From Opitutales bacterium (GTDB taxonomy: Bacteria; Verrucomicrobiota; Verrucomicrobiia; Opitutales; PNEW01): 32,000 bases of DNA. The translations under genes were made by a program, and so were the position numbers. The notes under the pieces are model-generated. The model was not told the origin of the DNA, made no database searches, and saw only the letters and a list, made by a program, of their open reading frames with translations. Where the stretch lies: NCBI GenBank assembly GCA_965219535.1, contig CBDCNV010000001.1, positions 660,001-692,000 on the forward strand, written 5' to 3'. Below, one piece after another: positions 12,090 through 30,953 of this stretch (positions are counted from its first letter, which is position 1; every line of letters begins with the position of its first letter).

Positions 12090-12136
12090 AATTTTCCCAT
12101 TCGAATTTAACGCCATTACTCGCGTTACGCTTAAAT

Positions 12137-13590: not shown

Positions 13591-13684
13591 TTCAAATCGA
13601 TCATTTTTTCAATTCAATCTTTTATCACCAGATGATGCGAAGTGCCTAACTTGCTTTCAAGTCAACAGACGATAAAAAGTGTAC

Positions 13685-14230
13685 CTACCAAACACTGACA
13701 ACGGTATTTTTTATTTTCTGTGCAAGACTGCGAGTAAGCACGGGCATTGTCTGGTACTCAGATTGAGGTAACCCATCGTCGATTAAGATATTGTCGTTGG
13801 CGGAGAGTGTTCTCCCAGCGAAATATAAGTTACCCGTAAGATTATCGAGAAGTGAAACTTGCGCTTCCAGCGTTACACCGAAAGTCCGCCCAAGAAAAGT
13901 ATCCTCTTCTTGCCTGGCAGCAATCTCACGGTCGTACCTGGTAAGGACCACACGTAAGGTGGCCTCTGCCTGGTTTTCATCAACAACACGCACCTGTCCA
14001 TCGCGTAAAAATGCTTCAATGAGATTTTCGTTGAGTAAGGCTTGTGCCTGAGGTGCGAATGACCGATTACTAACCGGTTCAATGTAGAGCGTTTTAAAAG
14101 GCGTATCTGCTGCTTGACCTAAATGATAGCTTGCACAACCGTTATTGATCCCAAGGACAAAAACGAAAGCTAGAAATATATAAGCGGAGCTTAGCTTCTT
14201 TTCTGCATTAATGAGCGGTGCCACTTTCAT
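13685..14230 (-). CDS. LptE-like outer-membrane lipoprotein (putative LPS-assembly lipoprotein), 181 aa
   Basis: The N-terminal signal ends in LGINNGC, followed by ASYHLG. This resembles the Cys-Gly-(F/Y)-His-Leu start of mature LptE/RlpB. The size and mixed alpha/beta character fit. It sits 25 nt downstream of the BamD-like gene. The family assignment is tentative. Confidence 0.5.
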   Translation of the reverse strand: MKVAPLINAEKKLSSAYIFLAFVFVLGINNGCASYHLGQAADTPFKTLYIEPVSNRSFAPQAQALLNENLIEAFLRDGQVRVVDENQAEATLRVVLTRYDREIAARQEEDTFLGRTFGVTLEAQVSLLDNLTGNLYFAGRTLSANDNILIDDGLPQSEYQTMPVLTRSLAQKIKNTVVSVW

Positions 14231-14255
14231 AGGGGGATTGAGAGGAACATTATCA

Positions 14256-16945: not shown

Positions 16946-17048
16946 AGAAGATAAAGTTACAAAAAAAAGAAAATTTCAGAAAGGCTTTAATGCGCTCTTA
17001 TGTCAAGGTGCTTTACTAGTATGACAAGTATACTATTCCAGGTGTTCC

Positions 17049-18128: not shown

Positions 18129-18177
18129 GAAGGCTACAGGCAGCCTCGAGTGTAATTATTCCAATTTGTAAGCAAAA

Positions 18178-18357
18178 TCAGACCGTTACATCGAGTACTT
18201 GACGGCCACGATACATGCCGTTGGCGGGATTCACACGATGTGGTCTGTAAACGGTGCCATCAGCCGAATCTTTTGCAAGGATCGGCGATTTAAATCGGTT
18301 CGCGCCGCGCCGCTTGCGGCTTCTTTGCTTAGAATGTTTGCGCTTTGGTGTAGCCAT
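18178..18357 (-). CDS. rpmF: 50S ribosomal protein L32
   Basis: Absent from the ORF track because it is only 59 aa. Manual minus-strand translation from the ATG at 18357-18355 to the TGA at 18180-18178 gives MATPKRKHSKQRSRKRRGANRFKSPILAKDSADGTVYRPHRVNPANGMYRGRQVLDVTV. The MA-x-PKRK-x-SK-x-R N-terminus is the L32 signature. It ends 49 nt upstream of plsX, which is the canonical position. A purine-rich stretch (aaagaaagag) precedes the ATG. Confidence 0.9.
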   Translation of the reverse strand: MATPKRKHSKQRSRKRRGANRFKSPILAKDSADGTVYRPHRVNPANGMYRGRQVLDVTV

Positions 18358-18449
18358 AAAAGTCTCTTTCTTTCAATACGCTTAGAAAAATCTTATCAGA
18401 TACAATAGTTTTGTGTAATAAATACCCAATTTATTACGACAATTTAAAT

Positions 18450-18478
18450 AATAAATGCCACTATTCTTTACGCGTCAA
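18450..18478 (-). promoter_or_regulatory. Candidate sigma70-type promoter for rpmF-plsX-fabH (minus strand: TTGACG-17 nt-TTTATT)
   Basis: Read on the minus strand, TTGACG (18478-18473) is followed by a 17-nt spacer and TTTATT (18455-18450), about 90 nt upstream of the rpmF ATG in an AT-rich intergenic region. This is a pattern match only, and other hexamer pairs are possible. Confidence 0.25.
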
Positions 18479-18725
18479 GTAATCAATTTCATGCACTTTT
18501 TACAAATCATAAATCAATGGGGCCAAATAATTTATACAGATACTTACTTTATTCACCTTTTGGAAGTGGGTTATATAAATGCCGGTTAATTATAGGTGGA
18601 TTTATTCGTGCTCTCTCGCTAAGAACCGAGTAATTGATTCATTCTGTGAAAGATTGTTATCTTATTACGACTTTCGATAAAAACTCCTTGCACCGGTTGA
18701 TACGCATTAATCGAATGTTTTTATT

Positions 18726-19205
18726 GTGCCAGATTGCCAACATCTTCTCATTGACGGTTATAATATTCTGCATACATGGCCTGCGCTAAAGGATTTTTTG
18801 CCTGGTAATATCGATATTGCAAGAGATCGGTTAGGTGACGCGGTTCGTATTATTCATGATTATGACGGAATCCGAACAACCCTTATATTTGATGGGCGTG
18901 GTCGAGAAATTGAGGTGGTCCGCCCTTCGAATGAAAGTACCTTTTCTTTTCTTTATACGCCCAGCGGCGAAACTGCGGATAAAATAATTGAGCAGCTGGT
19001 AGCCAAAGCAAATAAACCACAAGGTATATTTGTCGCGACCAGGGATAATATGATCCGTGAAACAGTGCATGCTCTGGGGGCTCAAACACTGAGTCCAGAG
19101 GCTTTAGTTGATTGGGTGCACGCCTGTGAGCGTGGGCAAACGGAGAAACTAAAAAGGATGAATAAAAGTTCGGATAGTCGTTGGAGAAATCGGCAAGATC
19201 AGTGA
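18726..19205 (+). CDS. NYN-domain ribonuclease-like protein, YacP/Rae1 family (159 aa)
   Basis: GTG start. The N-terminus LLIDGYNILH, then TLIFDG and FVATRDNMIRE, match the conserved acidic and Asp-containing blocks of the YacP-type NYN domain. The size also fits. Confidence 0.72.
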   Translation: MPDCQHLLIDGYNILHTWPALKDFLPGNIDIARDRLGDAVRIIHDYDGIRTTLIFDGRGREIEVVRPSNESTFSFLYTPSGETADKIIEQLVAKANKPQGIFVATRDNMIRETVHALGAQTLSPEALVDWVHACERGQTEKLKRMNKSSDSRWRNRQDQ

Positions 19206-20410
19206 TTTCTAATCATATAGCCGAGATACAGGGACTCTATGGTCCTGTATCTATATCTGAAGAGCTATTACAAAAAATATGGTTACGAGGTGATTTTTTT
19301 CATTATCATCTTAACACAGTAGAGGGGTCCTTACTTAATGTGAAATCTCCTGGAATATGGAATAAACAGGAAGGCCCGGACTTTAAGGGGGCTGAATTAG
19401 AGATCGATGGACAATCGATGCGGGGAGATGTGGAAATACACTTTTATGCAAGTGATTGGCTTCATCATCAACATGACAAAAACAATAATTATAATAATGT
19501 CGTTCTCCATGTAGTGTTATTTGAACCCTCTGATGAAGATCTACCTCTCCGGAATTTCAACGGGGATATCATTCCCACATTAGTCCTCTTGCCCGTTCTT
19601 CCCCAGGATATAGAGGAGTATGCTTTAGAGGAAGCATTATTGGCAAAAAGCGACCGTTACTATGATGATATTCTAAACATTTTACGAACTAAACCCGCAA
19701 GTGAGCAGCGGCGCATTCTTTTCGATAAGTCGATCGTGAGATGGGAACGAAAACTGGAACTCATAGAGAAGCGATTACAGAACTCCAGTTGGCAAGAGAC
19801 ATGCCACCAATTGTGTCTGGAAGTGTTGGGCTACCGGCGCAACCGCGCGGCGATGTATGATCTTGCGATTCGATTCCCTTTGGTGGAAATGTGTAAGAGT
19901 AATAGACGTGCCGAGTTCTATTATAATTTGGATAAACGCCGATGGAAACTCACCGGATTACGGCCAATCAACCACCCTCTGGTTCGCCTCAGGCAGTATC
20001 TGAAACTAATTGATAGAATGCCTCAGTGGCCGGATTTATTGGAAAGTAGATTTGTCCATTGGACCCTTCCTATTCGTGTTGACGATAATACATCGCGATT
20101 TCGCAAAAAATGTGACCTGAAATCGTTGCGGCTGAATTTTAAGCAGCAAGTATTAGCTGATTGCCTATCCTCAACTCGACTGGACACGTTGATTTGTGAT
20201 GCAATTTTACCCATGCTCGCCGTTCACAACATACAGCCCTTATTTTACTACTGGTTTCATTGGTATAGTGGTGACCTGCCTCATACCTTAAGCGATTTTT
20301 TGAAAAAAACTGAAATTACAGATGGAAAGAAATGGCCCGCTTGTAATGGATATAATCAGGGGATCCTACAGTTATACATAGAAAACGGTTTATTAAAATC
20401 TGCTGCGTAG
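19181..20410 (+). CDS. DUF2851-family protein (409 aa from a TTG at 19181; a GTG at 19202 is an alternative start)
   Basis: The N-terminal block is EELLQKIWLRGDFFHYHLNTVEGSLLNVKSPGIWNKQEGPDFKGAELEIDGQSMRGDVEIHFYASDWLHHQHDKNNNYNNVVLHVVLF. It matches my recollection of the DUF2851 N-terminus (IW...L.T.DG..L.I...G..N...GPDF..A.I.I.G....G.VEIH...SDW..H.H......YDNVILHVV). With the GTG start the gene overlaps the NYN gene stop as GTGA (19202-19205). Confidence 0.72.
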   Translation: MEKSARSVISNHIAEIQGLYGPVSISEELLQKIWLRGDFFHYHLNTVEGSLLNVKSPGIWNKQEGPDFKGAELEIDGQSMRGDVEIHFYASDWLHHQHDKNNNYNNVVLHVVLFEPSDEDLPLRNFNGDIIPTLVLLPVLPQDIEEYALEEALLAKSDRYYDDILNILRTKPASEQRRILFDKSIVRWERKLELIEKRLQNSSWQETCHQLCLEVLGYRRNRAAMYDLAIRFPLVEMCKSNRRAEFYYNLDKRRWKLTGLRPINHPLVRLRQYLKLIDRMPQWPDLLESRFVHWTLPIRVDDNTSRFRKKCDLKSLRLNFKQQVLADCLSSTRLDTLICDAILPMLAVHNIQPLFYYWFHWYSGDLPHTLSDFLKKTEITDGKKWPACNGYNQGILQLYIENGLLKSAA

Positions 20411-20415
20411 ATTAC

Positions 20416-20449
20416 AAAAAACCGGAGCAGAGATTTAACTCCGCTCCGG
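20416..20449 (-). terminator. Rho-independent terminator downstream of glnA, possibly also serving the convergent DUF2851 gene
   Basis: The stem ccggagc (20422-20428) pairs with gctccgg (20443-20449) across a 14-nt loop. It is flanked by AAAAAA (20416-20421), which reads as a U-tract on the minus strand, 30 nt after the glnA stop. The plus-strand tail is only cttt. Confidence 0.6.
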
Positions 20450-20479
20450 CTTTCGATAATTGTTCTAATCCTCGTTGTT

Positions 20480-21901
20480 TTATAAATCGTAGTACATATA
20501 AAACTCGTAAGGGTGAGGTCTTAAATTTAACTCTGCCAGTTCACGCGTCCGTTTATAATCGATCCAGGTATCAACAACATCAGAAGTGAATACGTCACCC
20601 CTGAACAGCCAATCGTGATCAGCTTCCAGGTTATCGAGGACATCTCCCAGGGAACCAGGCGTACTATTAATTTTTTCAGCTTCTTGGGGTTCCAAATCAT
20701 ATAAATTTCGGTCGTGTGGATCTCCGGGATCGATTTTATTCTGAATCCCATCCAACCCGGCCATGAGCATCGCAGATAAACAGAGATAGATGTTGCAGGA
20801 TGGATCTGGACATCTGAATTCTATTCGTTTTGCAGCCGCACTCTTAGAATAGAGTGGAATGCGAACGGCAGCGGAACGGTTGCGCTGGGAGTAAACGAGG
20901 TTTACCGGCGCTTCGTATCCTGGTACTAATCGCTTGTAGCTATTCGTGGTAGGATTGGTGAAAGCGAGAAGGGCAGGGGCGTGTTTTAAAAGACCGCCGA
21001 TATAATATTTCGCCATATCGCTAATCTGTGCGTATCCTTTTTCATCATAGAATAGATTGTTATCTCCTTTCCACAAACTTTGGTGCACATGCATACCGGA
21101 GCCGTTATCTTGAAAGATCGGCTTGGGCATAAAGGTGACTGTTTTATCATATTTTTTGCAAACATTGCGTACAATGTATTTATATTGCATGACTCTATCA
21201 GCCATCGTCGTTAAGGGCGCGTAGCGCATATCAATCTCAGCCTGTCCCGCGGTACCCACTTCATGATGGTGCACTTCCGTCTCAACACCTACATCCTTCA
21301 ACCTCAGAATTATTTCGGAACGGAGGTCTTGTAGCGAATCCGTTGGTGGAACAGGAAAATAGCCTTCTTTGTGGCGAGGTTTGTAACCAAGATTGGGATA
21401 TTCCTCACGGCCTGAGTTCCATATGCCCTCTTTTGAGTCGATAAAGTAGTAGGCAGAATGGGCATTTTGATCGAATCGAACATCGTCAAATATGTAAAAT
21501 TCAAGCTCAGGGCCCCAGTAGCTGACATCAGCGATTCCCTCGCTCTGGAGGAATTTTTCCGCTTTCTGTGCGATATAACGAGGGTCACGGCTATAAGGTT
21601 GCCTGGTGACGGGATCGAAAATATTGCAAGTTAAACTCAGGGTTGGTATCTGCAAGACAGGATCGACAACAGCCGAATCAGGATCAGCAACCAATATCAT
21701 GTCGCTTTCTTGAATCTCCTGAAAACCACGGACACTGGAGCCGTCGAACCCCATCCCTTCACCAAATAGGTCTTCCGTGAGATCTTCTACTGGGAGAGAA
21801 AAGTGCTGCCACACACCTGGCAGGTCACAGAATCTCATATCCACGATTTTCACCCCCCCATCTTTCGCAATTTTTTCTACATCATTTAAAGTCTTAGGCA
21901 T
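20480..21901 (-). CDS. glnA: Glutamine synthetase, type I
   Basis: The 473-aa protein has GSI blocks throughout: VDMRFCDLPGVWQHFS, GFDGSSVRGF, GPELEFYIFD, HHHEVGTAGQAEID, KPIFQDNGSGMHVHQSLW, NSYKRLVPGYEAPV, SQRNRSAAVRIP and RIEFRCPD. NLYDL resembles the adenylylation-site Tyr context of GSI-beta enzymes. Confidence 0.95.
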   Translation of the reverse strand: MPKTLNDVEKIAKDGGVKIVDMRFCDLPGVWQHFSLPVEDLTEDLFGEGMGFDGSSVRGFQEIQESDMILVADPDSAVVDPVLQIPTLSLTCNIFDPVTRQPYSRDPRYIAQKAEKFLQSEGIADVSYWGPELEFYIFDDVRFDQNAHSAYYFIDSKEGIWNSGREEYPNLGYKPRHKEGYFPVPPTDSLQDLRSEIILRLKDVGVETEVHHHEVGTAGQAEIDMRYAPLTTMADRVMQYKYIVRNVCKKYDKTVTFMPKPIFQDNGSGMHVHQSLWKGDNNLFYDEKGYAQISDMAKYYIGGLLKHAPALLAFTNPTTNSYKRLVPGYEAPVNLVYSQRNRSAAVRIPLYSKSAAAKRIEFRCPDPSCNIYLCLSAMLMAGLDGIQNKIDPGDPHDRNLYDLEPQEAEKINSTPGSLGDVLDNLEADHDWLFRGDVFTSDVVDTWIDYKRTRELAELNLRPHPYEFYMYYDL

Positions 21902-22091
21902 TTATATTCTCCTCTTAGATTTTGTTCTCTGGTTATTATTGAAGATTTGATTGTTGGAATTATCGTAAAAATAATGAATTTTCGTCATCCACCCTTTCTT
22001 CTGAAAAGGGTTTTGATACTTGCAAGATAATTGTGAAATCAGTCAAACATAAATAGGGATAATTTTACGTATAACCATAGTAGCACTTTAG

Positions 22092-24038
22092 ATGCCAAGA
22101 AATCCTGCAAGTTCTCGTTTGTATAAAATCGAACATTCAGGCTTTTACCAAGCCAGCGGTATCCTGGATTGGTTGATAACAATCTTCGCTGTATTCATCC
22201 TGGGCTACAATATCTGGCATTTGGGGGGATATCATCCCTATGCGCAAATGGTAAGTTCATGGATGACAGGGGGGTTGCTTGTCCTGCATGGTTTTTGGGG
22301 GTTATCGAGACACAATGACAATATTAGGATTAACCCACTGGGCCTGGTTTTTATCCCTTTCCTCCTTTATATTTACGTCAGTTATCTCTTCCTCACTCCT
22401 GTTCCATGGCTAGCCAAGCGAGAGTTAATTATGGGGTGTCAGGGCATGGTCGTTTTCTGGGTTATCCTGCATAATCTAAGGCGAAAAGAATGTTTATGGT
22501 TTTTTCTAATATCTCTGGTAGTGCTGGCTTTTATCTGTGTTTTAGTTGCTTACTACCAGTATTTCACCGAATCGGACTGGTTGCCGATGGGTCGTAAGCA
22601 AGTCGACACTTATGACGGTCGTGCATCAGGTACGTTTGGTATTCCCAATAGTTTGGCTGCTTTACTGATTTTAATTATCCCCCCCTTGATCGTTATTGGG
22701 TTTGCGCCAAAAAAATCCATCAACTTACGCATTGTATGCATCTATTTGGCCCTGATGTTTTCGGGCGGGATTATCATAACTGGCAGTCGGGGAGGGTCGA
22801 TTGGGTTTATTTGTGCTCTCTTAATATTGCCGTATTTTGTCACGAGACAAGTCATCGATCGATTGAAGTTTTTCTTTGCTATTATCATCACCGGGGTTGT
22901 GGTCTTTCTCGTTGTTTATATCTTCGTCGATACATATCGGCAGCGTGTGGATTACCTCGTTGACCAACGGGGTGAATCCTCACGAAAGATCCTTTGGCGA
23001 GCTTCATGGGATATATTTAAAAAGCAGCCGCTCACCGGTAGCGGTGCTGCCAGCTTTGATCATCAATTCGAATTTTACCGCCCGGAGTCTCTCCAGCTTC
23101 GTGCCCGACATACACATAATGATTACTTGAATACTTTAAGTGATTATGGGCTGTTAGGTTTTATACTGCTCTTTTTCCCCGCACTATACCTCCTCTGGCG
23201 CGGGTGGTCTGTCTGGAGAAATCTACCCTTCTTCGCTCGCTCGAGGGAGTCAAAAGTAAGAGTGACACCCACAACTAAATTAATCCTCGGTGGATTACTG
23301 CCGGGTGTTGTGGCCTTTTCTATTCATCTATTCGTTGACTTTCATTTAAAGATTCTCGCTCTTCTCTTGATTCTCGCCTCTATATTTGGACTGATTGTCA
23401 AATGTTCTTCAACTTCCGATTGGGGTCTACCGGGGAAACGTTGGGGGTCAGGTTTGTGGTTTGTTTTCATGCTCACACTTGGCCTGTGTCTGGGGTGGGA
23501 GGGAATGAAGTCATTTAAAAGCGCAGAGCGTTATTTTGAAGCGCGTGAGCGACTGGATGACTATTTCGATAATTTAGAAAGCATGCGAAGGGATGAAGCA
23601 TACATCAGCGAAACAATTCGCGTATTCGAGGAAAGCACAAGATGGGATCCAGACAATGCCTATGCCTGGGGTGACCTCGGAATGGCGACATTGCAGACTT
23701 ATTACTTGAATCCTGAGAATTATAAGAACATCGGCCAAGACGCTCAAATGAAAATAGAGAAAGCTTTGGCTATTACCGATCAAGTTTGGTCTTTTCATGC
23801 TTATAAAGGATTGGCTTTGAACTTACAGGGCAGAACCTTAGATGAGGTGCGACCCTCTTTTAAAAAAGCGATCACCTTTGGGGCTAATAATGCTGATGCT
23901 TGGTATTATTACGGCGCCGTTCTTGGGTATAATAAATCGGCGCGAAAGGAAGCTGTAGAGGCCTTAGAACGGGCGATTAAGCTTGACCACGGCCATGGTG
24001 ATGCTATAAGATTAAGGGACAAATTGAAATCACGGTAA
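22092..24038 (+). CDS. Wzy_C / O-antigen-ligase-like polytopic membrane protein fused to a C-terminal TPR domain (648 aa)
   Basis: It has about 10-12 TM segments. A large loop carries SRKILWRASWDIFKKQPLTGSGAASF and HTHNDYLNTLSDYGLLGF, which fit the Wzy_C pattern (G.G.G.F plus H-N-x-YL and a GxxG helix). Residues from about 470 to 648 are soluble TPR-like repeats (AYAWGDLGMATLQ, NADAWYYYGAVLGYNKSARKEAVEALERAIKLD). Confidence 0.7.
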   Translation: MPRNPASSRLYKIEHSGFYQASGILDWLITIFAVFILGYNIWHLGGYHPYAQMVSSWMTGGLLVLHGFWGLSRHNDNIRINPLGLVFIPFLLYIYVSYLFLTPVPWLAKRELIMGCQGMVVFWVILHNLRRKECLWFFLISLVVLAFICVLVAYYQYFTESDWLPMGRKQVDTYDGRASGTFGIPNSLAALLILIIPPLIVIGFAPKKSINLRIVCIYLALMFSGGIIITGSRGGSIGFICALLILPYFVTRQVIDRLKFFFAIIITGVVVFLVVYIFVDTYRQRVDYLVDQRGESSRKILWRASWDIFKKQPLTGSGAASFDHQFEFYRPESLQLRARHTHNDYLNTLSDYGLLGFILLFFPALYLLWRGWSVWRNLPFFARSRESKVRVTPTTKLILGGLLPGVVAFSIHLFVDFHLKILALLLILASIFGLIVKCSSTSDWGLPGKRWGSGLWFVFMLTLGLCLGWEGMKSFKSAERYFEARERLDDYFDNLESMRRDEAYISETIRVFEESTRWDPDNAYAWGDLGMATLQTYYLNPENYKNIGQDAQMKIEKALAITDQVWSFHAYKGLALNLQGRTLDEVRPSFKKAITFGANNADAWYYYGAVLGYNKSARKEAVEALERAIKLDHGHGDAIRLRDKLKSR

Positions 24039-24065
24039 CTTATTTAACCTCTGCCTGAACGCTGT

Positions 24066-24980
24066 ATGAATCGGTCATTATCTATCCTGTTTTTTGTCTC
24101 TATTTCTTCTCTTATTTTTTCACTTCAAGCATTCGGGCAGGAGGCGGGTATTATCATCCTGGCCAATGTTAAGGGTGAGGTTATATATAATACTACCTCA
24201 GACGCGCCGGCACAGGTTGCGAGTGAAGGTATACGGTTGGGCGAGGGAGCGGTGGTGGAAACGATGGAAAAATCATCCGCGATCTTAGTTTTCTCAAACG
24301 GTTCAACTGTTAATCTATCGGAAAAAACTAAAATTTCTGTTAAGCAATTTTTACAGGAACCTTTTGATTCAGATCCTGCTGATATTGCCGATGCTAAAAG
24401 GGAACCGAGTATGTCTCAAACTCGCCTCGCCCTGGATTATGGCGATATGGTGGGTAACATTAAAAAGCTCAGAAGAGGCAAAGGATCCCTATTTGAAATT
24501 GAAACACCTGCTGGCATAGCGGGTATCAGGGGAACAATTATATCTTTGACGGTAGTCTTAGGACCTTCTGGTAATATTTTGAGCTTTTCAGCTACCTTCG
24601 TCGATGGTAGCGGGCAATTAACTCAAGTTGATGGAACCATTTCTGTTATAAGCGACGGTATTGAGTTAACTACATCAGAAAGTGGGGAAACCGCGCTTAA
24701 TGAAGCTGATGCTGAGACAGTCGAAGGTATGCGAGCAGCAGCGGCCGAGGGTCAAGAAGCATTTGAAGCACATGTCGAAACTATAGTAGCTGAAATCGAG
24801 GCCGCAGCCGCAGCCGCTAGCAGCGGTGACGACGACGATAGTGGAGATGATGATGATAGCAGCGGTGACGATGACGATAGTAGCGGAGACGACGATGACA
24901 GTGGTGGCGATGGCGATGATGGAAATCTTCCCCAAGGTCAGTCTGAGCAACCCGACATTACTACCGGTACCGGGACTTAA
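24066..24980 (+). CDS. Secreted FecR-domain-like protein with a helical Ala/Glu segment and a poly-acidic (S)SGDDDD C-terminal tail (304 aa)
   Basis: The signal peptide is MNRSLSILFFVSISSLIFSLQAFGQ. The block ANVKGEVIYNTTSDAPAQVASEGIRLGEGAVVETMEKSSAILVFSNGSTVNLSEKTKISV fits the FecR beta-sandwich pattern (G.V......A..G..L..G..V.T...S.A.L.F..GS.V.L...T.). It starts 27 nt after the Wzy_C-TPR gene. Confidence 0.55.
   Translation: MNRSLSILFFVSISSLIFSLQAFGQEAGIIILANVKGEVIYNTTSDAPAQVASEGIRLGEGAVVETMEKSSAILVFSNGSTVNLSEKTKISVKQFLQEPFDSDPADIADAKREPSMSQTRLALDYGDMVGNIKKLRRGKGSLFEIETPAGIAGIRGTIISLTVVLGPSGNILSFSATFVDGSGQLTQVDGTISVISDGIELTTSESGETALNEADAETVEGMRAAAAEGQEAFEAHVETIVAEIEAAAAAASSGDDDDSGDDDDSSGDDDDSSGDDDDSGGDGDDGNLPQGQSEQPDITTGTGT
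24819..24926 (+). repeat. Short in-frame tandem repeat encoding SSGDDDD SGDDDD SSGDDDD SSGDDDD SGGDGDDGN
   Basis: The run agcggtgacgacgacgat / agtggagatgatgatgat / agcagcggtgacgatgacgat / agtagcggagacgacgatgac is read directly. The units are 18-21 nt and use varied Asp/Ser/Gly codons. Confidence 0.85.
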
Positions 24981-25069
24981 GACTGGATTAAATCGCCTTC
25001 CTTTTCGCAATAGAGCTAGCGATAGCAGCATCAGTTTTTATTTCTAGACTCAGCTAAATAATAACAGTT

Positions 25070-25128
25070 TACCGATTTTCAGGTTAATCGGTAGAAAGAA
25101 ATTTTTCACCCCTCGTTAAGTGAGGGGT
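25070..25128 (+). terminator. Two consecutive hairpins in the 201-nt gap after the FecR-like gene (possible terminator or attenuator)
   Basis: Hairpin 1 pairs taccgatt (25070-25077) with aatcggta (25086-25093), a perfect 8 bp stem with an 8-nt loop. Hairpin 2 pairs acccctc (25108-25114) with gaggggt (25122-25128), a 7 bp stem with a 7-nt loop. Hairpin 2 is preceded by attttt and followed by tattta. Neither has a clean U-tract. Confidence 0.35.
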
Positions 25129-25181
25129 TATTTAAGCCGTTATATAAGTGAGAACAGCGTTGTGTAACAGCGGTTTAATCC

Positions 25182-28151
25182 ATGGGCATGTTGTTAGGAT
25201 ACAGAGCTAAAATCCGAAATAAAGAATACGGCTTTGCTCTTATAATAATTTTATCCTTAACCGCCTTATTAACTTTCCTTCTGCTTAGTATGGCTACCTT
25301 CGTTCGGGTAGATACAAGCGTTGTAGAGACGAGAAATTACCAAAAACTGGCAAGAGATAACGCGATTTATGCTTTTCGTCTGGCTTTAAGTGAAATTCAA
25401 CTATATGCCGGTCCCGACCAACGGGTTACTGCTCGCGCCGATATATTTGACGAAAATATTGCCAATCCCTTTTGGACGGGAATTTGGAATGTAGATCCCA
25501 CTTCATCAGGTTATGGTGATGTAACCTGGCTCGTATCAGGGATGAATCCCAATCCTCGCTTGGCGATGGAGGATGAAGTTATTCTATTGGGAGATGGTTC
25601 TGCATCAGAGATCATTGCCCTGCCACGTGAGCCAATCTTCATTACACCATTTGAGAGACAGGAAAAATCCAGCCTCATCAGGCAGGGGCATTATGCTTAC
25701 TGGGTGTCTGATGAAGGAATAAAAGCAAGTATCGCAAAGATCGATCACACTGATGTAAGAATTAACTATCGCAATGACATAGAGCGCGATCTCATGAGGC
25801 AATTGAGTCCTCAGAAAATAGGAGGTGAAGTGTTTTATCCCGATTTGAGTCCTTTGAGTTTGGACTATGACTCGGTTAATTCGAATCTGCATAAAATACA
25901 TTCGCGATCACAATTACCATTAATAAGCGGATTAATTGGTAATGAAAAGTCGGCGCTCAATGCTATCGCGCATCAGCATTTTCATGATCTGACAACTGTG
26001 GCATATGGCGTTATTGCCAATACTTTGAGTGGTAAGGATGCCGGTTTGAAAAAAGACCTTTCTCTCTATCCATCACTTTTAGGCCCAGGTTTCGAAGCGT
26101 ATCTGGATTATCCGTCCTACATGGCAGGGATGAATGATAAAGCAGAAACGTCGCTTCCAACTCGGCATTATAATATAACCCCTTTTGATTCCACCTTTAC
26201 TCAACCCGGTCAGATTCAGCATACCATTGCTCCGATTCTCACTGAATCTTTATTTCAAATAAATATTCGAAGTAATGAGAAATCTCCTGAAATAAGGGTG
26301 AGGTTACGCAGTCTGTTTGAACTGTGGAATCCCTACACAAGTGAAATCCTCCTTGGCTCAAGCAACGCTGGTGAACTTGAAATGGCAGTAACTGGTTTAC
26401 CAACGATCTTAGTTGTCGATTCAAATGGTGGTACGGCCAGCATTGATCTGCAGAACCTCTTGGGTGATACCTCGCAACCTGATTCACCATTTATTATCCG
26501 CCTCCCTTTCCCCGCGGAAGAACATTGGTTGCCGGGGCGTATTTTTAACTGGGCGGGGGCTCCAATCGCTAACTTTGATTCGCGGAGATGGAATCTAAAT
26601 GCAATTACGATTGGGGGGGCAAACGGTTTGGAAACGGGTAAAATGGCACTCGAGCCAATTCGGAGCAAAACCAGTAATGATACGCGATTTGAAATTACAA
26701 GCGCTGAACTGACTTCTCTCAATCTGAAATTATATCTTGCTGTGTTTGGTAAGGAGAAGGCATTGCTCGCAGATTATCGCGATGTCCAATTTTCCGAAAT
26801 TGACGTTGCCCCCTACAAACACTGGCAGAAGACAATGAATTTTGGTTTCCATTTCCGCTTGAAAGAACCTATCGACAGCCATGCGCACCCTGAACATCGC
26901 AGGGGGCAATGGCTCGTCGATCATGATCCCCAATTAAATGCATCAGCCTTTACCAGTGTGCAAGGTGTTCTACCTGCCGAACCAGAGCTATTCGGTGGCG
27001 CTAATGTTAAAACTTCAGCTCCCTCACATATTTTTGACCGTCGATCTGGTAATAATTTTCGACATCCTTATGAGGATATCCCCATTTTTGAGTTACCACG
27101 ATTAGATGCTTATTCCCTGGGATCATTGCAGCACCTATTCATTGTTGGAGAAAGACCTTTCTCCATTGGGAATCGTTGGAGTTCCGAATCGTGGCGAAGT
27201 ATTTTTGACCGCTATTTTCTCTCTGCTCTTCCTCGCCATGGCGATCCTGCGGACTTTGACCCTAGGCTTCCATTGCCTAATCCCTGGCTTGTTTTACATC
27301 ACTCTCTTCCCACAGTCTCATTGGGAATGGAGGATATTCTCACTTCAGGAAATGAGTCCGCCCGTCACTTTTTCATACAGGGTGCTTTCAACATAAACTC
27401 CACTTCTGTCTCTGCGTGGGAAGCAGTTCTTAGTTCTTTAAAAATTAAAGATTGGAGATATCTTGATGTTGATAATAAAAAAGGTACTCCGCAAACGGTC
27501 TCTACCGTTGATTTAATGACTTCGTTTGCACGCTTCTCGCAAAGTGCTCAAGAGACTTTTGAAGCGCCGGACGTCAAGCAGGATCCTTATGATCCGGGCC
27601 CAACTGTATTTCCGACAAAATTGTACCGTCGAGGATTGAGAACCCTTAGTAAAGATGAAATCGACATTATGGCACAGGGGATAGTAGACCGGCTACGAAT
27701 AAATGCTGCCGATGGTATTCCTTTTCGATCACTGGGTGAATTTATTGGACCCTTGAGTGGAGAAGATCCTGAATCGATGAGTGTAGTTGAGGCTGCGATC
27801 GCTGATATTGATAATATAAATTTATGGCAGGCGGATGGAGAGGTTGTTGAAATCGATAAATTTTCATCCTATGATTTGACATCAGCAGATATCCTTACCG
27901 CTATCGCTCCTTTTATTTCCGTCCGTTCCGATACGTTTCTCGTTAGGGCTTACGGTGATGTCATCAATCCCCTCGTTCGTGATGACAAGGGTCTACCAGT
28001 GACTGAGGGACGAGCCTGGTGTGAAGCAATAGTTCAGCGTCTGCCTGAGTTGCTAAATACTGACGATAATATCTTCTCTCCTTCTCCCTACGGTTTTGGG
28101 CGTCGCTTTTACATCTTATCATTCAGATGGTTAGACACATTAGATATCTGA
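25182..28151 (+). CDS. Giant (989 aa) pseudopilin-like envelope protein with GspK/PilX-type N-terminal anchor and C-terminal block. It is reminiscent of the TIGRFAMs Verru_Chthon cassette protein A class.
   Basis: The N-terminus is basic, then Gly-Phe, then a 22-residue hydrophobic helix (RNKEYGFALIIILSLTALLTFLLLSMATF) with no Glu at +5, as in GspK-type minor pseudopilins. Next come RNYQKLARDNAIYAFRLALSEI and HYAYWVSDEGIKASI. The C-terminus is ISVRSDTFLVRAYGDV...GRAWCEAIVQRLPE. Together these are the bracketing motifs I associate with GspK-like and Verrucomicrobial large pseudopilin-like proteins. The family call is from memory and has not been searched. Confidence 0.55.
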   Translation: MGMLLGYRAKIRNKEYGFALIIILSLTALLTFLLLSMATFVRVDTSVVETRNYQKLARDNAIYAFRLALSEIQLYAGPDQRVTARADIFDENIANPFWTGIWNVDPTSSGYGDVTWLVSGMNPNPRLAMEDEVILLGDGSASEIIALPREPIFITPFERQEKSSLIRQGHYAYWVSDEGIKASIAKIDHTDVRINYRNDIERDLMRQLSPQKIGGEVFYPDLSPLSLDYDSVNSNLHKIHSRSQLPLISGLIGNEKSALNAIAHQHFHDLTTVAYGVIANTLSGKDAGLKKDLSLYPSLLGPGFEAYLDYPSYMAGMNDKAETSLPTRHYNITPFDSTFTQPGQIQHTIAPILTESLFQINIRSNEKSPEIRVRLRSLFELWNPYTSEILLGSSNAGELEMAVTGLPTILVVDSNGGTASIDLQNLLGDTSQPDSPFIIRLPFPAEEHWLPGRIFNWAGAPIANFDSRRWNLNAITIGGANGLETGKMALEPIRSKTSNDTRFEITSAELTSLNLKLYLAVFGKEKALLADYRDVQFSEIDVAPYKHWQKTMNFGFHFRLKEPIDSHAHPEHRRGQWLVDHDPQLNASAFTSVQGVLPAEPELFGGANVKTSAPSHIFDRRSGNNFRHPYEDIPIFELPRLDAYSLGSLQHLFIVGERPFSIGNRWSSESWRSIFDRYFLSALPRHGDPADFDPRLPLPNPWLVLHHSLPTVSLGMEDILTSGNESARHFFIQGAFNINSTSVSAWEAVLSSLKIKDWRYLDVDNKKGTPQTVSTVDLMTSFARFSQSAQETFEAPDVKQDPYDPGPTVFPTKLYRRGLRTLSKDEIDIMAQGIVDRLRINAADGIPFRSLGEFIGPLSGEDPESMSVVEAAIADIDNINLWQADGEVVEIDKFSSYDLTSADILTAIAPFISVRSDTFLVRAYGDVINPLVRDDKGLPVTEGRAWCEAIVQRLPELLNTDDNIFSPSPYGFGRRFYILSFRWLDTLDI

Positions 28152-28891
28152 TTCTTCTCTATTCATCACTTGTTTTATTTTTCTATGCCTCAGGACAAGA
28201 CGATGGGCCAATCACCCATAATTACACCTTTAGCGTGTATGCGTTCAAAAAGATTCAAGGTCTCTATTACGATACTTATTCTGTAGATTCATTAAGTCAG
28301 CGTGAGTGTTTGAAAACGGTTTCGATCCCCTTGCGTTTCTACACCGTTTCACGATCACCTTCCTACCACTATAGAGGTCCCAATCCGATTGTTTTTTATC
28401 GCTGGGAAACTGATCTCTCAGATTCAACAAATAAAATGAAAATCCCGGTAGGTTCTGTATCTCTATCTTATGTGAATCGAAATCTACTCTTCATCTTTCT
28501 CCCAGGCGTTGATTCACAAATTGAAAATCCTAAATTCAATATACAAACCTTTAATGACAGCTCTTCCCATCTGCCGATGAATAAGTTGATTGTTTACAAT
28601 CTTTCAGGGCGACTGTTGGAAGGAAATATTGGAGGGGAAAGCGTCAGCATTGGCACTGGTCCTACCGCTCCATTTTCAACACGTAATTCATTACCTGTCA
28701 CCCTATGGTATAAAATCAATGGAAATGTGGTACCAGGTTTTAACCTTTCTTTAACTCTAAAGCGCAATCACCGTTACCTGATTTTTTTCTTTCCTCCGGC
28801 TATTAAGGGGGCAATAGAGTTACAATACCGGATTTTGGATGAGGAAGTTGAAGTCCCTCGCGAATTAATATTTCAAGAATTAGAGGGTTAA
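28127..28891 (+). CDS. Secreted beta-rich hypothetical protein (254 aa), with its start inside the last 25 nt of the giant gene
   Basis: The signal peptide is MVRHIRYLILLYSSLVLFFYASGQ. The rest is rich in short alternating hydrophobic strands (YTFSVYAF, IPLRFYTV, IVFYRW, VSLSYV, LLFIFLPG, LIVYNL, VTLWYKI, YLIFFFP). I recognised no family. There is no alternative in-frame Met near the 5' end, so the 25-nt overlap with 25182..28151 appears real. Confidence 0.6.
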   Translation: MVRHIRYLILLYSSLVLFFYASGQDDGPITHNYTFSVYAFKKIQGLYYDTYSVDSLSQRECLKTVSIPLRFYTVSRSPSYHYRGPNPIVFYRWETDLSDSTNKMKIPVGSVSLSYVNRNLLFIFLPGVDSQIENPKFNIQTFNDSSSHLPMNKLIVYNLSGRLLEGNIGGESVSIGTGPTAPFSTRNSLPVTLWYKINGNVVPGFNLSLTLKRNHRYLIFFFPPAIKGAIELQYRILDEEVEVPRELIFQELEG

Positions 28892-28940
28892 TGAAATATG
28901 TCGGTTAGGAGTTGGGAGCGATCACCACACAATCATGGAT

Positions 28941-30830
28941 CTAGAATTGGTAGCCGAGATAGTTCCAGTGATTAAGCCCCCAGAGAAAAATTAAAATTCC
29001 AGTTAATAAAACAAAAACAAAGATTTTTTCGCATTTTTGAAAAACAGAACTCTTCCAGTTGATAGCAGTGTGATATATCAGTCCAACACTAGCGGCCATT
29101 GCAAAGAATGGAACGCTAAGCAGACCATAAAGTGCTATTGGCATTTCCTCGACCATCTTATATGAGCCGAGAGAAGTTAGAATAAAAATACCGATAAAAA
29201 AAACTAAGGGGGCGATAGCGACGAGAGATGCATATTTCCTTATGCTTCTTAGTGTGAGTAGTGATTCATTTTCATTATTTTTTTTCCGCGTTTTTATAAA
29301 TATTATTATACAAATCAGCGTTGAAAGCGTGAATGTGACGACTATGCCAGCGATTAATCCGCGGTGAAACCAAGCTGTTTTAAACCACTTGATTTTATTA
29401 TATACTTCTACACCTCCAAGATAGAGATGTGCGAATGCATTTTCATCATTACGTACAAACGCAACGATTTTATTATCAGTTGTCCGTGCAAAGAGATCCG
29501 CACCTATTGGTTGACTGAGAACACCGTCGATTAATAACACTTTGTTGTCGGTCGCCGTAACTCGAATTTCCTTACCCTGTATCCCTACTAAAGCACAGGC
29601 TTTTCCGGGAGAGGTTCGCGGATACCAATTATGACGGTATGTTCCCGTGTAGGATAAAGCATTGAATGCAGAGTGTGTTTCATTTGAAGTATCGGTCGCT
29701 GCTGTCTGCGCAGGGAAAAAACGTTGAAGAAAAGCACTTAGAAATGCGTTTAAAAATTTAGGGTCCGCATTGTAATTGAGAAAAATACCTAAACGGTGCT
29801 CAGGCATAATAATTAAAGCGCTTCTATGTCCCGGCATATGGCCCGTATGCCAGAGTAGATGTTGCTCGTTCTCTTCATATGCCCAGAAACCATAGGCGAT
29901 ACCGGGAAGTTTTGGGTTGAGTGTGTGGTGTTCTTCATGGACCAACTTTAATGACTCTGCATGCTGATATAATTTTGGCTCACTACCGTTTGTCTCGCTT
30001 GTCTCATAATCCAAATGAGCATTCATAAATAAGGCCATGTCCTGTGCTGTCGTAATGAGTGAGGAAGCGGGATAGGGTTTCCAATGGCCGCGCGGTAATT
30101 CGCGGTAATTCCGCATAAAATAGTTATAACCCAATGCCACTTCTGCATCCCAATCTTTAGGAGGGATGAAGCTCGTCTGTGACATGCCTAAAGGGCTGAA
30201 TATATTATTGTGAGCATATTCAGCAAAGGGTTGACCGCTGACTTCTTCGATAACATAACCGGCCAGGGAGATTCCGTAATTAGAATAATTGATTACTTCT
30301 CCCGGATTAGCGAGTGGCGGTGGCATCTCTTCGCGAAGAAATTGCCCGAGTGGAAGTAAATCCTTCGAATCTTTTACCGTCTGGCCAAAAAATCTTTCAC
30401 CTACTCCACCCGTATGGGTAAGTAATTGATGGAGAGTTATGGGTGCATTGTATTCTTCGAGTATATCAGGTTCGATATAATCGGTAATATCAGTTTCCAT
30501 ATCCAGTTGATTGCGGTCATAGAGTTGAATCACCGCGGTTGCGGTTATCAGTTTGGAAATTGATCCCACACGAATGCGTGTCTTCACTGGATCCATCAGC
30601 CGTTTCTTATTTAAGTCGGCGTAACCATAACCCTTTAAGATATGAATTGAGCCGTCCTTAACCACCGCAACAACAGCGCCCGGGACGTGTTCTTTTTCCA
30701 TCATCTCAACTAGCCACTCATCGAAAAAAGCTTCAACCTTACTTTTGTCATCAACATCACCTGCAACCAATTTGAGGGTAGCTATAAGCAGTTGAAGTAT
30801 TAGAAGCGTATTTAAATAAATCTGTTTCAT
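28941..30830 (-). CDS. Beta-lactamase-fold serine hydrolase (class C / PBP4*-like family) with signal peptide and a C-terminal four-TM membrane domain. The start is revised to the ATG at 30830.
   Basis: The motifs are S-x-x-K (VGSISKLITATAV), Y-S-N (VINYSNYGISLAGYVIE) and H-T-G (LLWHTGHMPGH). Four C-terminal hydrophobic helices are present (GLIAGIVVTFTLSTLICIIIFI, LVAIAPLVFFIGIFILTSL, IALYGLLSVPFFAMAASVGLIY, IFVFVLLTGILIFLWGL). The track ORF begins at a GTG at 30953 that directly abuts the upstream terminator hairpin. Met42 (MKQIYLNTLLILQLLIATLKLVAG) gives a proper signal peptide. Confidence 0.75.
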   Translation of the reverse strand: MKQIYLNTLLILQLLIATLKLVAGDVDDKSKVEAFFDEWLVEMMEKEHVPGAVVAVVKDGSIHILKGYGYADLNKKRLMDPVKTRIRVGSISKLITATAVIQLYDRNQLDMETDITDYIEPDILEEYNAPITLHQLLTHTGGVGERFFGQTVKDSKDLLPLGQFLREEMPPPLANPGEVINYSNYGISLAGYVIEEVSGQPFAEYAHNNIFSPLGMSQTSFIPPKDWDAEVALGYNYFMRNYRELPRGHWKPYPASSLITTAQDMALFMNAHLDYETSETNGSEPKLYQHAESLKLVHEEHHTLNPKLPGIAYGFWAYEENEQHLLWHTGHMPGHRSALIIMPEHRLGIFLNYNADPKFLNAFLSAFLQRFFPAQTAATDTSNETHSAFNALSYTGTYRHNWYPRTSPGKACALVGIQGKEIRVTATDNKVLLIDGVLSQPIGADLFARTTDNKIVAFVRNDENAFAHLYLGGVEVYNKIKWFKTAWFHRGLIAGIVVTFTLSTLICIIIFIKTRKKNNENESLLTLRSIRKYASLVAIAPLVFFIGIFILTSLGSYKMVEEMPIALYGLLSVPFFAMAASVGLIYHTAINWKSSVFQKCEKIFVFVLLTGILIFLWGLNHWNYLGYQF

Positions 30831-30953
30831 ATTGATGATATGCTTAGATTTATTGAAAACCTGAAAATACAAACAAATAAATTGGATTTTACTTATATAA
30901 TTACAGTCTCTACGCCGAAAATATATCTTCAGTTGGAGCCTTAATTTCCCCAC

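Follow-up and report, generated by a model that had tools for sequence, protein, structure and literature searches.

Four adjacent, same-strand genes that all encode envelope proteins lie in a 32,000-nt stretch of Opitutales DNA (the window), and their arrangement raises the question of whether they serve one system or two. A first-pass annotation had joined all four as a single pseudopilin-anchored surface adhesin system, in which the gene 1 product would be a PglL/TfpO-like Wzy_C glycosyltransferase and the products of genes 2 and 4 periplasmic accessories. The explanation that we consider probable as a whole is one of two modules: genes 3 and 4 (module B) would encode a giant GspK-type cap and its partner from the distal end of an Opitutae pseudopilin operon, and genes 1 and 2 (module A) would belong to an envelope-sensing unit.

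By their ORF coordinates, genes 1 and 2 are separated by 27 nt and genes 2 and 3 by 201 nt, and genes 3 and 4 overlap by 25 nt. ORF coordinates and folding bore out the four same-strand reading frames, the gaps, the overlap, and the two hairpins described in the first-pass annotation, and profile searches upheld its domain calls for gene 1 (Wzy_C and TPR) and gene 2 (FecR and poly-Asp). It had also noted that T2SS and type IV pilus assembly genes are absent from the window, and the window ORFs indeed include no ATPase, platform, secretin, peptidase, or major pilin; genes for G, H, I, or J pseudopilins, prepilin peptidase, or T2SS machinery were likewise not found within the window. Gene 3 was the sole genuine prepilin-motif ORF in a regex scan of the window ORFs. 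The one other match, a 73-aa ORF at 24826-25047, runs in a different frame across the 3' end of gene 2 and was not counted as genuine. The rest of the window ORFs are housekeeping genes, encoding cNMP-binding, CinA, PhoX, MsrPQ-like, LptE, YfiO-like, YacP, DUF2851, GlnA, beta-lactamase-like, and IlvB-like proteins.

The giant pseudopilin-like protein and its coupled partner

Gene 3 (25182-28151, + strand) encodes a 989-aa protein having a basic leader (residues 1-16) followed by G17/F18 (G17/FALIII) without a Glu at +5. The hydrophobic alpha-1 helix (residues 18-76) is succeeded by a head of ~900 residues, whose N- and C-terminal modules are conserved and whose center is variable. More than 1250 homologs of ~1000 aa were identified, and members occur in the genomes of at least 580 species, essentially all of them Verrucomicrobiota/Opitutae. 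All 27 members compared have Gly at -1 and I, L, or V at +5, and 23 have Phe at +1. The earlier description of gene 3 as a GspK/PilX-type pseudopilin-like giant agrees with this motif lacking Glu5 and with a weak match to GspK; the matches of the window giant to GspK and Verru_Chthon_A are confined to residues 17-81, and those of the family, in 25 and 26 of 30 members, respectively, are all far under cutoff. No Pfam match was obtained in 30 members (E<=1). The AF2 model (pLDDT 79, pTM 0.83) has mixed alpha/beta secondary structure, and neither profile search nor Foldseek returned a significant PDB match; 3ci0_K stood at rank 43 in the Foldseek search with this model (E 0.46). One source labels a gene 3 homolog "Tfp pilus assembly protein PilX."

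The giant shares with T2SS GspK (NF037980; PDB 3CI0) the basic leader, Gly at -1, the G/[FV]AL[LI][IV] start, which reads G/VALLIV in E. coli GspK, and the absence of Glu5, and the GspK model matches in family members extend over ~60 N-terminal residues. Also in keeping with GspK, the gene for the giant in relatives comes behind G-, H-, and J-like genes as the final one of pilin type, the window itself having no other pilin gene. Unlike GspK, the protein is three times larger (989 versus 327 aa), is followed by gene 4, a coupled gene without counterpart in canonical gsp operons, and is encoded often apart from other pilin genes and always apart from machinery genes. The Pfam T2SSK domain was found in none of 30 family members, the window giant scored 17.3 bits against NF037980 (cutoff 130) over residues 17-81 only, and hhalign of the giant with GspK aligned 26 N-terminal residues at 33% probability.

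A likeness also exists to the uncharacterized Verru_Chthon cassette A-D of Verrucomicrobia (TIGR02600, TIGR02598, TIGR02599, TIGR02596), which we take to consist of a giant "A" and small prepilin-type proteins. It occurs in the same phylum, the pilin-like N-terminus is carried by a giant, and in one relative's locus (L007) the best non-Gsp matches of the upstream pilins are D, B, and C in order, with the giant matching A. However, the scores are far below the cutoffs (C, 25 versus 256 bits; D, 31 versus 70). Against TIGR02600 (cassette A, cutoff 332.3), the window giant reached 9.1 bits and the best family members 26-29 bits, with alignments to the giants reaching no further than the first ~60 of the model's 1296 positions. 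Our literature search found no published description of the cassette.

Gene 4 (28127-28891, + strand) encodes a 254-aa protein with a signal peptide (predicted Sec export), belonging to a beta-rich family of ~230-260 aa with the conserved motifs RSxxYxYxG, DDSxxxxPxGxLxxxNxSG, and LLxxPPxxxGS. No Pfam match was found in 29 members, and the AF2 model is of low confidence (pLDDT 33). The protein had been called an orphan, which was mistaken: in 59 of 67 species-level loci the gene 3 relative is immediately followed by a family member, and the genes found in that place in L001, L002, and L007 are homologous to gene 4 (E 1e-15 to 4e-22). The dual-coding overlap of genes 3 and 4 (28127-28151, + strand) places the gene 4 ATG within invariant Arg-Trp codons of gene 3 (cgATGGtt). 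In an alignment of the junction from 12 diverse loci, the ATGG core is kept (TTG in L008), and the stop follows 25 nt further on. The exact 25-nt overlap recurs in 36 loci; in seven loci the two genes overlap by 4 nt. This conserved overlap points to translational coupling of the two genes. Because stand-alone gene 3 and gene 4 pairs occur in unrelated neighborhoods (L002, L169, and L170), we regard the pair as the unit.

Operon context and proposed role of genes 3 and 4

Two to five Glu5-bearing prepilin genes lie directly 5' of the gene 3 relative in 39 of 70 loci with room, and in the other 31 the pair stands alone, with no pilin genes nearby. The order in Horticoccus luteus and Actomonas aquatica is five N_methyl genes, the giant, and the partner. 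The five upstream pilins of L007 carry the NCBIfam labels GspG, GspG, GspH/cassette-D, cassette-B/GspI, and cassette-C. When seven contiguous 5-gene chains were compared by hhalign with E. coli K-12 proteins, the gene at position -5 corresponded to GspG (130 columns, 98.5%, E 2e-15) and that at -1 to GspJ (67 columns, 93%), and none of the five matched GspK. In Opitutales, PulG-like genes have been described as numerous and scattered, alongside a single T2SS cluster (PMC13274419). The giant and its partner belong to an unstudied secretion-pilus operon present in at least 580 Opitutae species.

From the synteny, the coupled junction, the conserved motifs, and the gene order that were observed, we propose that module B forms the distal part of a T2SS-type pseudopilin operon that is Opitutae-wide and has the order G-G'-H-I-J-K-X, and that the gene 3 product would be the subunit at the GspK, or cap, position. 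Prepilin peptidase would cleave it at G17/F18, and its alpha-1 helix would insert at the top of the pseudopilus, a location at which Glu5 would not be needed. The gene 4 product would be exported by Sec to the periplasm, produced in a fixed ratio to the giant by means of the 25-nt start/stop overlap, and could there bind the head of the giant as a chaperone or co-tip subunit. The pair of the window lineage, like that of about half of all lineages, would have been split from the G-J genes, so that these would be encoded elsewhere in the genome.

A more far-reaching proposal, which we offer tentatively, is that genes 3 and 4 represent an undescribed, Opitutae-wide class of type IV-filament tip, made of a cap pseudopilin of ~100 kDa, the head of which has no relative of solved fold, and an obligate, coupled periplasmic partner. 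The pair would be a repeatedly detached and possibly exchangeable module, and the variable center of the head might determine the targets of the T2SS-type pseudopilus, for example, large polysaccharide-degrading enzymes or the glycans in which these bacteria are specialized. The textbook T2SS cap GspK is ~35 kDa, and the way in which the tip engages cargo and secretin remains a matter of debate. Opitutae are important degraders of polysaccharides in marine and soil environments. If the proposal is true, a class-wide cap three times larger, with a variable center and a coupled partner, would constitute a natural experiment on tip function, and the cultured species Horticoccus luteus, Actomonas aquatica, and Thalassobacterium sedimentorum offer potential for study. 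The giant and its partner are also two large families currently lacking a Pfam or NCBIfam model, and both can now be annotated.

Several points run counter to a cap function: homology of the giant to GspK is not detectable past the first ~60 residues, the window has neither G, H, I, or J genes nor prepilin peptidase or T2SS machinery genes, and with about half of the loci stand-alone, the pair might work without a filament. Alternatively, the giant would not be part of any filament, its N-terminus serving only as an inner-membrane signal-anchor, with the head and the gene 4 product forming a self-sufficient envelope complex, such as for binding or as a scaffold, and the linkage to pseudopilins reflecting co-regulation only. 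The stand-alone pairs in unrelated contexts and a head in which no GspK-like domain is detectable would fit this reading. A ~100-kDa head also seems large for the tip of a T2SS pseudopilus. We nonetheless think this unlikely. The peptidase-type motif (Gly at -1, Phe at +1, Ala at +2, Leu at +3, and the basic leader) does not vary, even among stand-alone members, and a plain anchor would not require it. Whenever pilin genes are present, the giant occupies the slot after the GspJ-like gene. The stand-alone state is derived and occurs scattered over the tree, a locus from the window's own clade (L049) retaining four pilin genes.

Another reading would assign the pair to a surface type IV pilus, with the giant as a PilY1-like or modular-pilin tip adhesin outside the cell and the gene 4 product as a PilY2-like accessory. 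The layout of several minor pilins beside a ~1000-aa protein and a small accessory gene resembles that of the type IVa PilY1 priming complex (fimU-pilVWXY1Y2E), which in M. xanthus is reportedly a minor-pilin/PilY1 complex presumed to prime and cap the fiber; the PilX name given to one homolog and the variable central region, which would fit a binding domain, are also consistent with this reading. PilY1, however, is not known to have a pilin N-terminus and carries a beta-propeller, whereas the giant is itself a pilin-like subunit, and the pilins accompanying it are T2SS-like. No PilY1/Neisseria_PilC domain was detected by Pfam in 30 members (E<=1), and the secondary structure of the AF2 model is not propeller-like; by domain content, the giant is thus no PilY1/PilC adhesin. 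The domains grafted onto the S. sanguinis pilins are recognizable as lectin and vWA domains, in contrast to the ~900-residue body of the giant, which has no recognizable domain. What the giant has in common with such modular minor pilins (S. sanguinis PilB and PilC, PMC9934059) is a pilin N-terminal module fused to a large extra domain; in those pilins this domain gives the tip a new function, as it would in the giant. With the first operon gene corresponding to GspG and the last small pilin to GspJ, with T2SS models as the best NCBIfam matches of the upstream pilins, and with no T4P machinery near the operon in Horticoccus luteus or Actomonas aquatica, we regard a surface pilus as improbable.

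Genes 1 and 2 and their usual third partner

Gene 1 (22092-24038, + strand) encodes a polytopic membrane protein of 648 aa with a Pfam Wzy_C domain (PF04932) at residues 220-361 (81.5 bits versus a cutoff of 31.7, 7e-23). Its C-terminal TPR domain at approximately residues 478-640, to which Pfam TPR matches are weak, is placed in the periplasm by crude hydropathy. The full-length family comprises 195 cluster representatives (E<1e-30), and named relatives carry the annotation "O-antigen ligase family protein [Opitutae/Opitutales]." As in the Wzy_C superfamily (WaaL, PglL/TfpO, and IctB), the Wzy_C score is above cutoff and the large loop (residues 280-348) contains an invariant His motif, H342-N-D-Y-L. 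Unlike members of that superfamily, the protein has a C-terminal TPR domain, falls below the cutoffs of the IctB (TIGR00947, 63.5 versus 366.4 bits) and exosortase-ligase models, and is encoded without linkage to pilin genes across genomes.

Gene 2 (24066-24980, + strand) encodes a 304-aa protein with a Pfam FecR domain (PF04773) at residues 63-159 (31.5 bits versus a cutoff of 24, 2.4e-7). Its one hydrophobic segment (residues 5-23) lies in a signal peptide (predicted Sec export). A poly-Asp/Ser/Gly linker covers residues 252-285 (nt 24819-24920), and the extreme C-terminus is conserved (...PDITTGTGT). A role as a FecR-type anti-sigma factor was rejected, as only a cleavable-type signal peptide precedes FecR and no sigma-factor gene is found among the neighbors.

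In 62 of 63 loci with room, the gene 1 relative is directly followed by a gene 2-like ORF, mostly after gaps of 11-20 nt, and in 46-53 of these 62 loci the next gene encodes a protein with CHASE2 (114 bits) and Guanylate_cyc (62 bits) domains. In relatives, glnA lies 5' of the triad and ilvB 3' of it, and the window has the same flanking genes. Module A would thus correspond to the front part of a triad of a Wzy_C-TPR membrane protein, a periplasmic FecR protein, and a CHASE2-sensor adenylate/guanylate cyclase, which we infer to be an envelope-sensing signaling unit. The Wzy_C-TPR/FecR/CHASE2-cyclase set is a second uncharacterized, conserved triad brought to light here. A FecR-CHASE2 pairing has been described in the "BiofilmReg" operon of Burkholderia (PMC5192318), and relatives of module A similarly have the gene for an exported FecR protein directly 5' of that for a CHASE2 membrane sensor. 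They differ in having a class III nucleotide cyclase rather than a histidine kinase as output, in lacking a LysM domain, and in the Wzy_C-TPR protein that precedes the pair; the window locus, moreover, is without the CHASE2 gene.

That gene is absent at the locus from the window, L003, and L006, and its usual position in the window clade is occupied by the block of gene 3, gene 4, and the beta-lactamase gene. Codon 61 of gene 2 is an in-frame stop in L005, L006, and L008, and in L004 the gene carries a frameshift. The cyclase would thus have been lost from the module A locus in the window clade, with gene 2 decaying in close relatives, and module A of the window is a remnant of the putative envelope-signaling module.

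Synteny of the two pairs and the gap between them

Gene 1 and gene 2 relatives were found less than 10 kb from gene 3 or its relative only in the window, in same-species loci (L003 and L004), and in one species of 67% identity (L005, L006, and L008). No gene 1 or gene 2 relative lies within 10 kb of the gene 3 relative in the ~75 other gene 3 loci, and none of 80 loci centered on gene 1 relatives contains a gene 3 or gene 4 relative. The four-gene neighborhood is therefore not conserved across genomes, an outcome that the first-pass annotation had itself named as grounds for refutation. By the same counts, a role of the gene 1 product as a PglL/TfpO-type pilin O-oligosaccharyltransferase finds no support. 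Judged by synteny, genes 1 and 2 and genes 3 and 4 are two independent conserved modules, placed side by side by a lineage-specific rearrangement of a kind that can produce a misleading "four-gene cluster." The "two tightly coupled pairs" of the first-pass annotation stand, each with its own synteny, whereas a single system of all four, in which genes 1 and 2 serve the pseudopilin, is unsupported, the combination being absent outside a narrow clade and each pair being conserved in a different module. Retention of the four-gene order in same-species relatives and the 67%-identity species, together with the inclusion of pilin O-oligosaccharyltransferases in the Wzy_C superfamily, would be in keeping with one system, but this reading is largely refuted by the synteny, and we give it very little credence given the conserved cyclase as third partner of genes 1 and 2, the disruption of gene 2 in close relatives whose genes 3 and 4 are intact, the integrase region that replaces gene 1 beside intact genes 3 and 4 in L005, and a terminator-like hairpin between the pairs.

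The gap between genes 2 and 3 contains two hairpins on the + strand. Hairpin 1 (25068-25095; 10-bp stem, -11.2 kcal/mol, z -3.8) had no Rfam match and is kept only in same-species relatives. Hairpin 2 (25108-25128; 8-bp stem, -12.5 kcal/mol, z -3.3) is GC-rich and followed by UUAUUU; it was not called by a consensus terminator scan and is weakly conserved at best in L006, neither hairpin being otherwise kept at that distance (67% identity). Hairpin 2 is nonetheless terminator-like and could plausibly form the 3' end of a gene 1-gene 2 transcript. The TATATA box CCGTTATATA (25137-25146, + strand), ~35 nt 5' of the gene 3 ATG, is a candidate -10 element of a separate promoter for genes 3 and 4. 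We count the terminator-like hairpin and this conserved box as support for the separateness of modules A and B. The box is unchanged between the window and L003, L004, and L006 (the last at 67% identity), and the intergenic sequence flanking it diverges.

Two gene pairs in the window

The four genes described in the first-pass annotation were recovered as open reading frames on the + strand at exactly the coordinates it had given. Gene 1 (22092-24038) matched the Pfam Wzy_C (81.5 bits) and TPR models and gene 2 (24066-24980) the FecR model (31.5 bits), in agreement with the domains already assigned to them; gene 3, here termed the giant (25182-28151), and gene 4, its partner (28127-28891), had no Pfam match. 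As described there, a 27-nt gap separates genes 1 and 2, a 201-nt gap genes 2 and 3, and genes 3 and 4 overlap by 25 nt. The remaining genes of the window encode housekeeping functions, namely uvrC-, smc-, pfkB-, rpe-, fabH-, and plsX-like genes, glnA, CinA, PhoX, MsrPQ-like, LptE, YfiO-like, YacP, DUF2851, beta-lactamase-like, and ilvB. Scanned with a regular expression, the window contained gene 3 as its sole genuine prepilin-motif ORF; the only other match, a 73-aa ORF (24826-25047), was rejected, as it shares sequence with the 3' end of gene 2 in a different reading frame. In the YfiO/BamD-like TPR lipoprotein (14256-15953, - strand), two ~90-aa direct repeats (...KKLLRLGIFNK.GNSE...ENP.TLAEENLD.S.SLQ...RFRLFNN.DKTE...) make up a long, acidic extension at the C-terminus, and an antisense ORF of 215 aa (14302-14949) is probably a repeat artefact.

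More than 1250 homologs of gene 3 were found, each of about 1000 aa and all unnamed or "hypothetical," with most of the named ones from Opitutae. A scan of one genome per species detected relatives in at least 580 genomes, and the best 80 of these were essentially all Verrucomicrobiota/Opitutae. The sole non-Verrucomicrobiota title among the 80 loci belonged to a 5-kb contig binned as "Polaribacter sp." (L080), whose Bacteroidota label is most likely a binning error.

Gene 4 gave 6 close matches by direct search, and its profile retrieved 12 proteins; the locus analysis is a better gauge of family size. An AF2 model from 12 sequences was of low confidence (pLDDT 33). The protein was homologous (E 1e-15 to 4e-22) to that of a ~230-aa gene which in Horticoccus luteus, Actomonas aquatica, and a 2.3-Mb MAG contig lies 3' of the giant. 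An iterated HMM identified a family member directly 3' of the giant in 59 of the 67 species-level loci with room for one, and gene 4 is therefore not the orphan it had been taken for. In 36 loci the overlap of the two genes measured exactly 25 nt, and in 7 it was 4 nt. Aligned at nucleotide level, 12 diverse junctions placed the gene 4 ATG within the invariant Arg-Trp codons of gene 3 (cgATGGct), with the gene 3 stop 25 nt on. This dual coding is kept even between proteins just ~30% identical, which argues for translational coupling and co-function of genes 3 and 4. We weighed the convergent beta-lactamase-like gene as a possible third member of this unit and discarded it, since it adjoins the pair only in the window and in two comparison loci (L008 and L002).

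The giant and its place in a pilin operon

The N-terminus of the giant family comprises a basic leader with Gly at -1 (27/27 members), followed by Phe at +1 (23/27) and nearly invariant Ala +2 and Leu +3. Position +5 was I, L, or V in all 27 and Glu in none, whereas Glu5 was present in all five of the pilins encoded upstream. GspK of E. coli has the same kind of start (G/VALLIV). Over the first ~60 residues, the GspK model matched 25 of 30 members and the Verru_Chthon_A model, from the NCBIfam/TIGRFAM set describing a pilin-like cassette of Verrucomicrobia, matched 26 of 30. For gene 3 of the window, these NCBIfam matches were weak and confined to the N-terminus (GspK, 17 bits, residues 17-81; Verru_Chthon_A, 9 bits), and no family member scored even one tenth of the Verru_Chthon_A cutoff. 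From its residues, the N-terminus fits the GspK slot.

Likeness to known proteins was not detected beyond this segment. The ~900-residue body had no Pfam match in any of the 30 members, the family profile found no PDB sequence at E<=10, and hhalign against E. coli GspK aligned only 26 N-terminal residues, with a probability of 33%. For gene 3, AF2 gave a confident model (pLDDT 79, pTM 0.83), with a helix at residues 18-76, a beta-rich middle, and long C-terminal strands at 918-984; Foldseek returned no significant PDB neighbour for it (best E 0.025; 3CI0_K at rank 43, E 0.46). Equating the gene 3 motifs FNINSTS..AW and RSDTF.IRAYG with FNLNAL and the C-terminal SRYFTLS of GspK was supported by neither BLASTP nor hhalign against the E. 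coli protein. Conservation peaked at residues 51-100 and 901-989 and was lowest at 301-350 and 451-550, and in longer paralogs the centre is expanded while both terminal modules are retained. Since the N-terminus and slot are GspK-like and the body is not, the giant would lie outside the GspK family yet probably work like a cap pseudopilin. A literature search retrieved nothing for "Verru_Chthon," nor for "Verrucomicrobiota" with "GspK."

In H. luteus and A. aquatica, five small prepilin-type genes lie 5' of the giant; all ten encode the Glu5 prepilin motif, and Pfam N_methyl matched three of the H. luteus genes and the whole A. aquatica set. By NCBIfam, with every score below the model cutoff, the A. 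aquatica order reads GspG, GspG, GspH/cassette-D, cassette-B/GspI, cassette-C, the giant (cassette-A/GspK N-terminus), and the partner. On this locus (L007), the I-like gene spans 8824-9327, the J-like gene 9324-10004, the giant 10001-12889, and the partner 12865-13554. Profiles from seven fully contiguous operons were then compared with the gsp operon proteins of E. coli K-12. The gene at -5 matched GspG over its full length (130 columns, 98.5%, E 2e-15), that at -4 was GspG-like (97%), those at -3 (GspG/H-like) and -2 (ambiguous) matched in the N-terminal part only, and that at -1 matched GspJ (93%, 67 columns). None of the five matched GspK, and the giant therefore takes the GspK slot of the operon.

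Across the 70 loci with room, two to five Glu5-bearing prepilin ORFs were present within 6 kb upstream of the giant in 39, and none was found within that distance in 31, the state of the window likewise. That the giant instead forms an anchored periplasmic complex independent of any filament is an unlikely reading. We consider it still less probable that the pair belongs to a surface type IV pilus as an adhesin. The cap pseudopilin remains the reading we prefer. In Opitutales, PulG-like genes are known to number in the dozens and to lie scattered, together with a single T2SS cluster (PMC13274419).

Genes 1 and 2 and the origin of the juxtaposition

Gene 1 belongs to a full-length family of 195 representatives (E<1e-30), the named members being Opitutae proteins annotated as O-antigen ligase family. 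A scan with a 10-sequence alignment yielded 80 metagenomic loci, each with a gene 1 relative at its centre. A gene 2-like FecR protein was encoded directly 3' of the gene 1 relative in 62 of 63 loci with room, and the next gene, in 46-53 loci, encoded a ~750-aa protein with CHASE2 and class III cyclase domains; glnA was often upstream and ilvB often downstream, landmarks that the window has too. From this layout, the ancestral order would be glnA, Wzy_C-TPR, FecR, CHASE2-cyclase, ilvB. None of the 80 loci contained a gene 3 or gene 4 relative, and gene 1/2 relatives had a gene 3 relative no farther than 10 kb away only in the window, its same-species relatives L003 and L004, and one species of 67% identity (L005, L006, and L008). 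We regard the single four-gene system proposed in the first-pass annotation as highly improbable.

In the clade of the window, a block of gene 3, gene 4, and the beta-lactamase gene stands in the cyclase's place, and no CHASE2 cyclase was found in the window, L003, or L006 loci. In L002 (13874-21899), the same block directly adjoins an L32-plsX-fabH-bamD-lptE-rpe cluster; in the window (12925-30953), that cluster is inverted and lies beyond YacP, DUF2851, glnA, gene 1, and gene 2. These two orders fit an inversion or translocation as the event that brought the four genes together.

Both hairpins reported in the 201-nt gap proved real by computed folding. Hairpin 1 (25068-25095) had -11.2 kcal/mol and z -3.8; hairpin 2 (25108-25128; -12.5 kcal/mol, z -3.3) is followed by UUAUUU and is terminator-like. 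The hairpins were not conserved at 67% identity, an Rfam search of the gap found no family, and scans for sigma-70 and terminator consensus gave results at or below chance. An invariant CCGTTATATA box (25137-25146), ~35 nt 5' of the gene 3 start, is common to all four related intergenic regions and is kept while the sequence around it diverges, making it a candidate promoter element. Hairpin and box are consistent with separate transcripts for genes 1/2 and 3/4.

Constraint on gene 2 appears relaxed: the species of 67% identity has an in-frame stop at codon 61 of this gene (L006:6105-6107, two independent assemblies) and L004, a same-species Logan assembly, has a frameshift (~6300) that could be an assembly error. 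In L005, an integrase-containing segment takes the place of gene 1 beside intact genes 3 and 4. Over positions 1-5900, L005 and L006 differ upstream of an identical gene 2'-gene 3-gene 4 stretch, L006 carrying YacP, DUF2851, glnA, and gene 1, and L005 a phage-integrase-like gene, an HTH gene, and small ORFs; the contrast suggests a strain-level insertion or replacement removing gene 1.

The triad of Wzy_C-TPR, exported FecR, and CHASE2 plus class III adenylate/guanylate cyclase is conserved in L088-L167 (e.g. L127:5674-11054); in many Opitutae-like contigs from metagenomes it lies between glnA and ilvB, and the window keeps its first two genes only. The triad is apparently undescribed. A FecR-CHASE2 pairing is a described theme in Burkholderia (PMC5192318). 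The window (428-841, - strand) and L170 (19999-20382) each encode a small, free-standing cNMP-binding protein, which indicates that cyclic-nucleotide signalling is present in the window's organism although this locus lacks the CHASE2 cyclase. A crude topology prediction places the TPR domain of gene 1 in the periplasm, the compartment of the gene 2 product. In gene 2 relatives (window 24819-24980, L006:6600-6821, L088-L097), a hypervariable low-complexity linker, poly-Asp in the window, (GD)19 in L006, and Thr/Ser/Pro-rich in others, precedes a conserved extreme C-terminus (...PRTTPGDGK; window ...PDITTGTGT). This C-terminus may act as a peptide bound by the TPR domain, or else as a signal for sorting or glycosylation; both a TPR-peptide interaction and glycosylation of the linker are speculative possibilities.

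Proposed role of the pair and its stand-alone copies

We propose, with moderate confidence in the whole, that the giant is a cap pseudopilin with a bound partner and that genes 1 and 2 are remnants of an envelope-sensing cyclase module. The giant would be cleaved at G17/F18, take the GspK position, and rest on an I/J-like tip complex; the T2SS-type pseudopilus that carries this complex would have its remaining subunits encoded elsewhere. The gene 4 product would be Sec-exported, made in fixed ratio to the giant, and bind its head. As a specificity domain, the variable centre of this head is the strongest candidate. What is new is an unannotated, class-wide giant, plausibly a cap pseudopilin, with a coupled partner, brought beside an unrelated module through rearrangement. 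For the biology of T2SS and type IV filaments, the pair offers a tractable target that merits study.

Stand-alone gene 3/4 pairs occurred in unrelated housekeeping contexts (L002, L169, and L170). In a rough NJ tree they predominate in Puniceicoccaceae-like branches, including the position of the window, and L049, from the same clade as the window, retains four pilin genes 5' of the giant; the stand-alone state would thus be derived. Some MAGs hold two giant copies (L027 and L071, L064 and L074, L013 and L087, L069 and L082). In JBAZSJ01, a stand-alone pair was found alongside a full-operon copy of the giant, a hint that a single genome may carry alternative tip modules.
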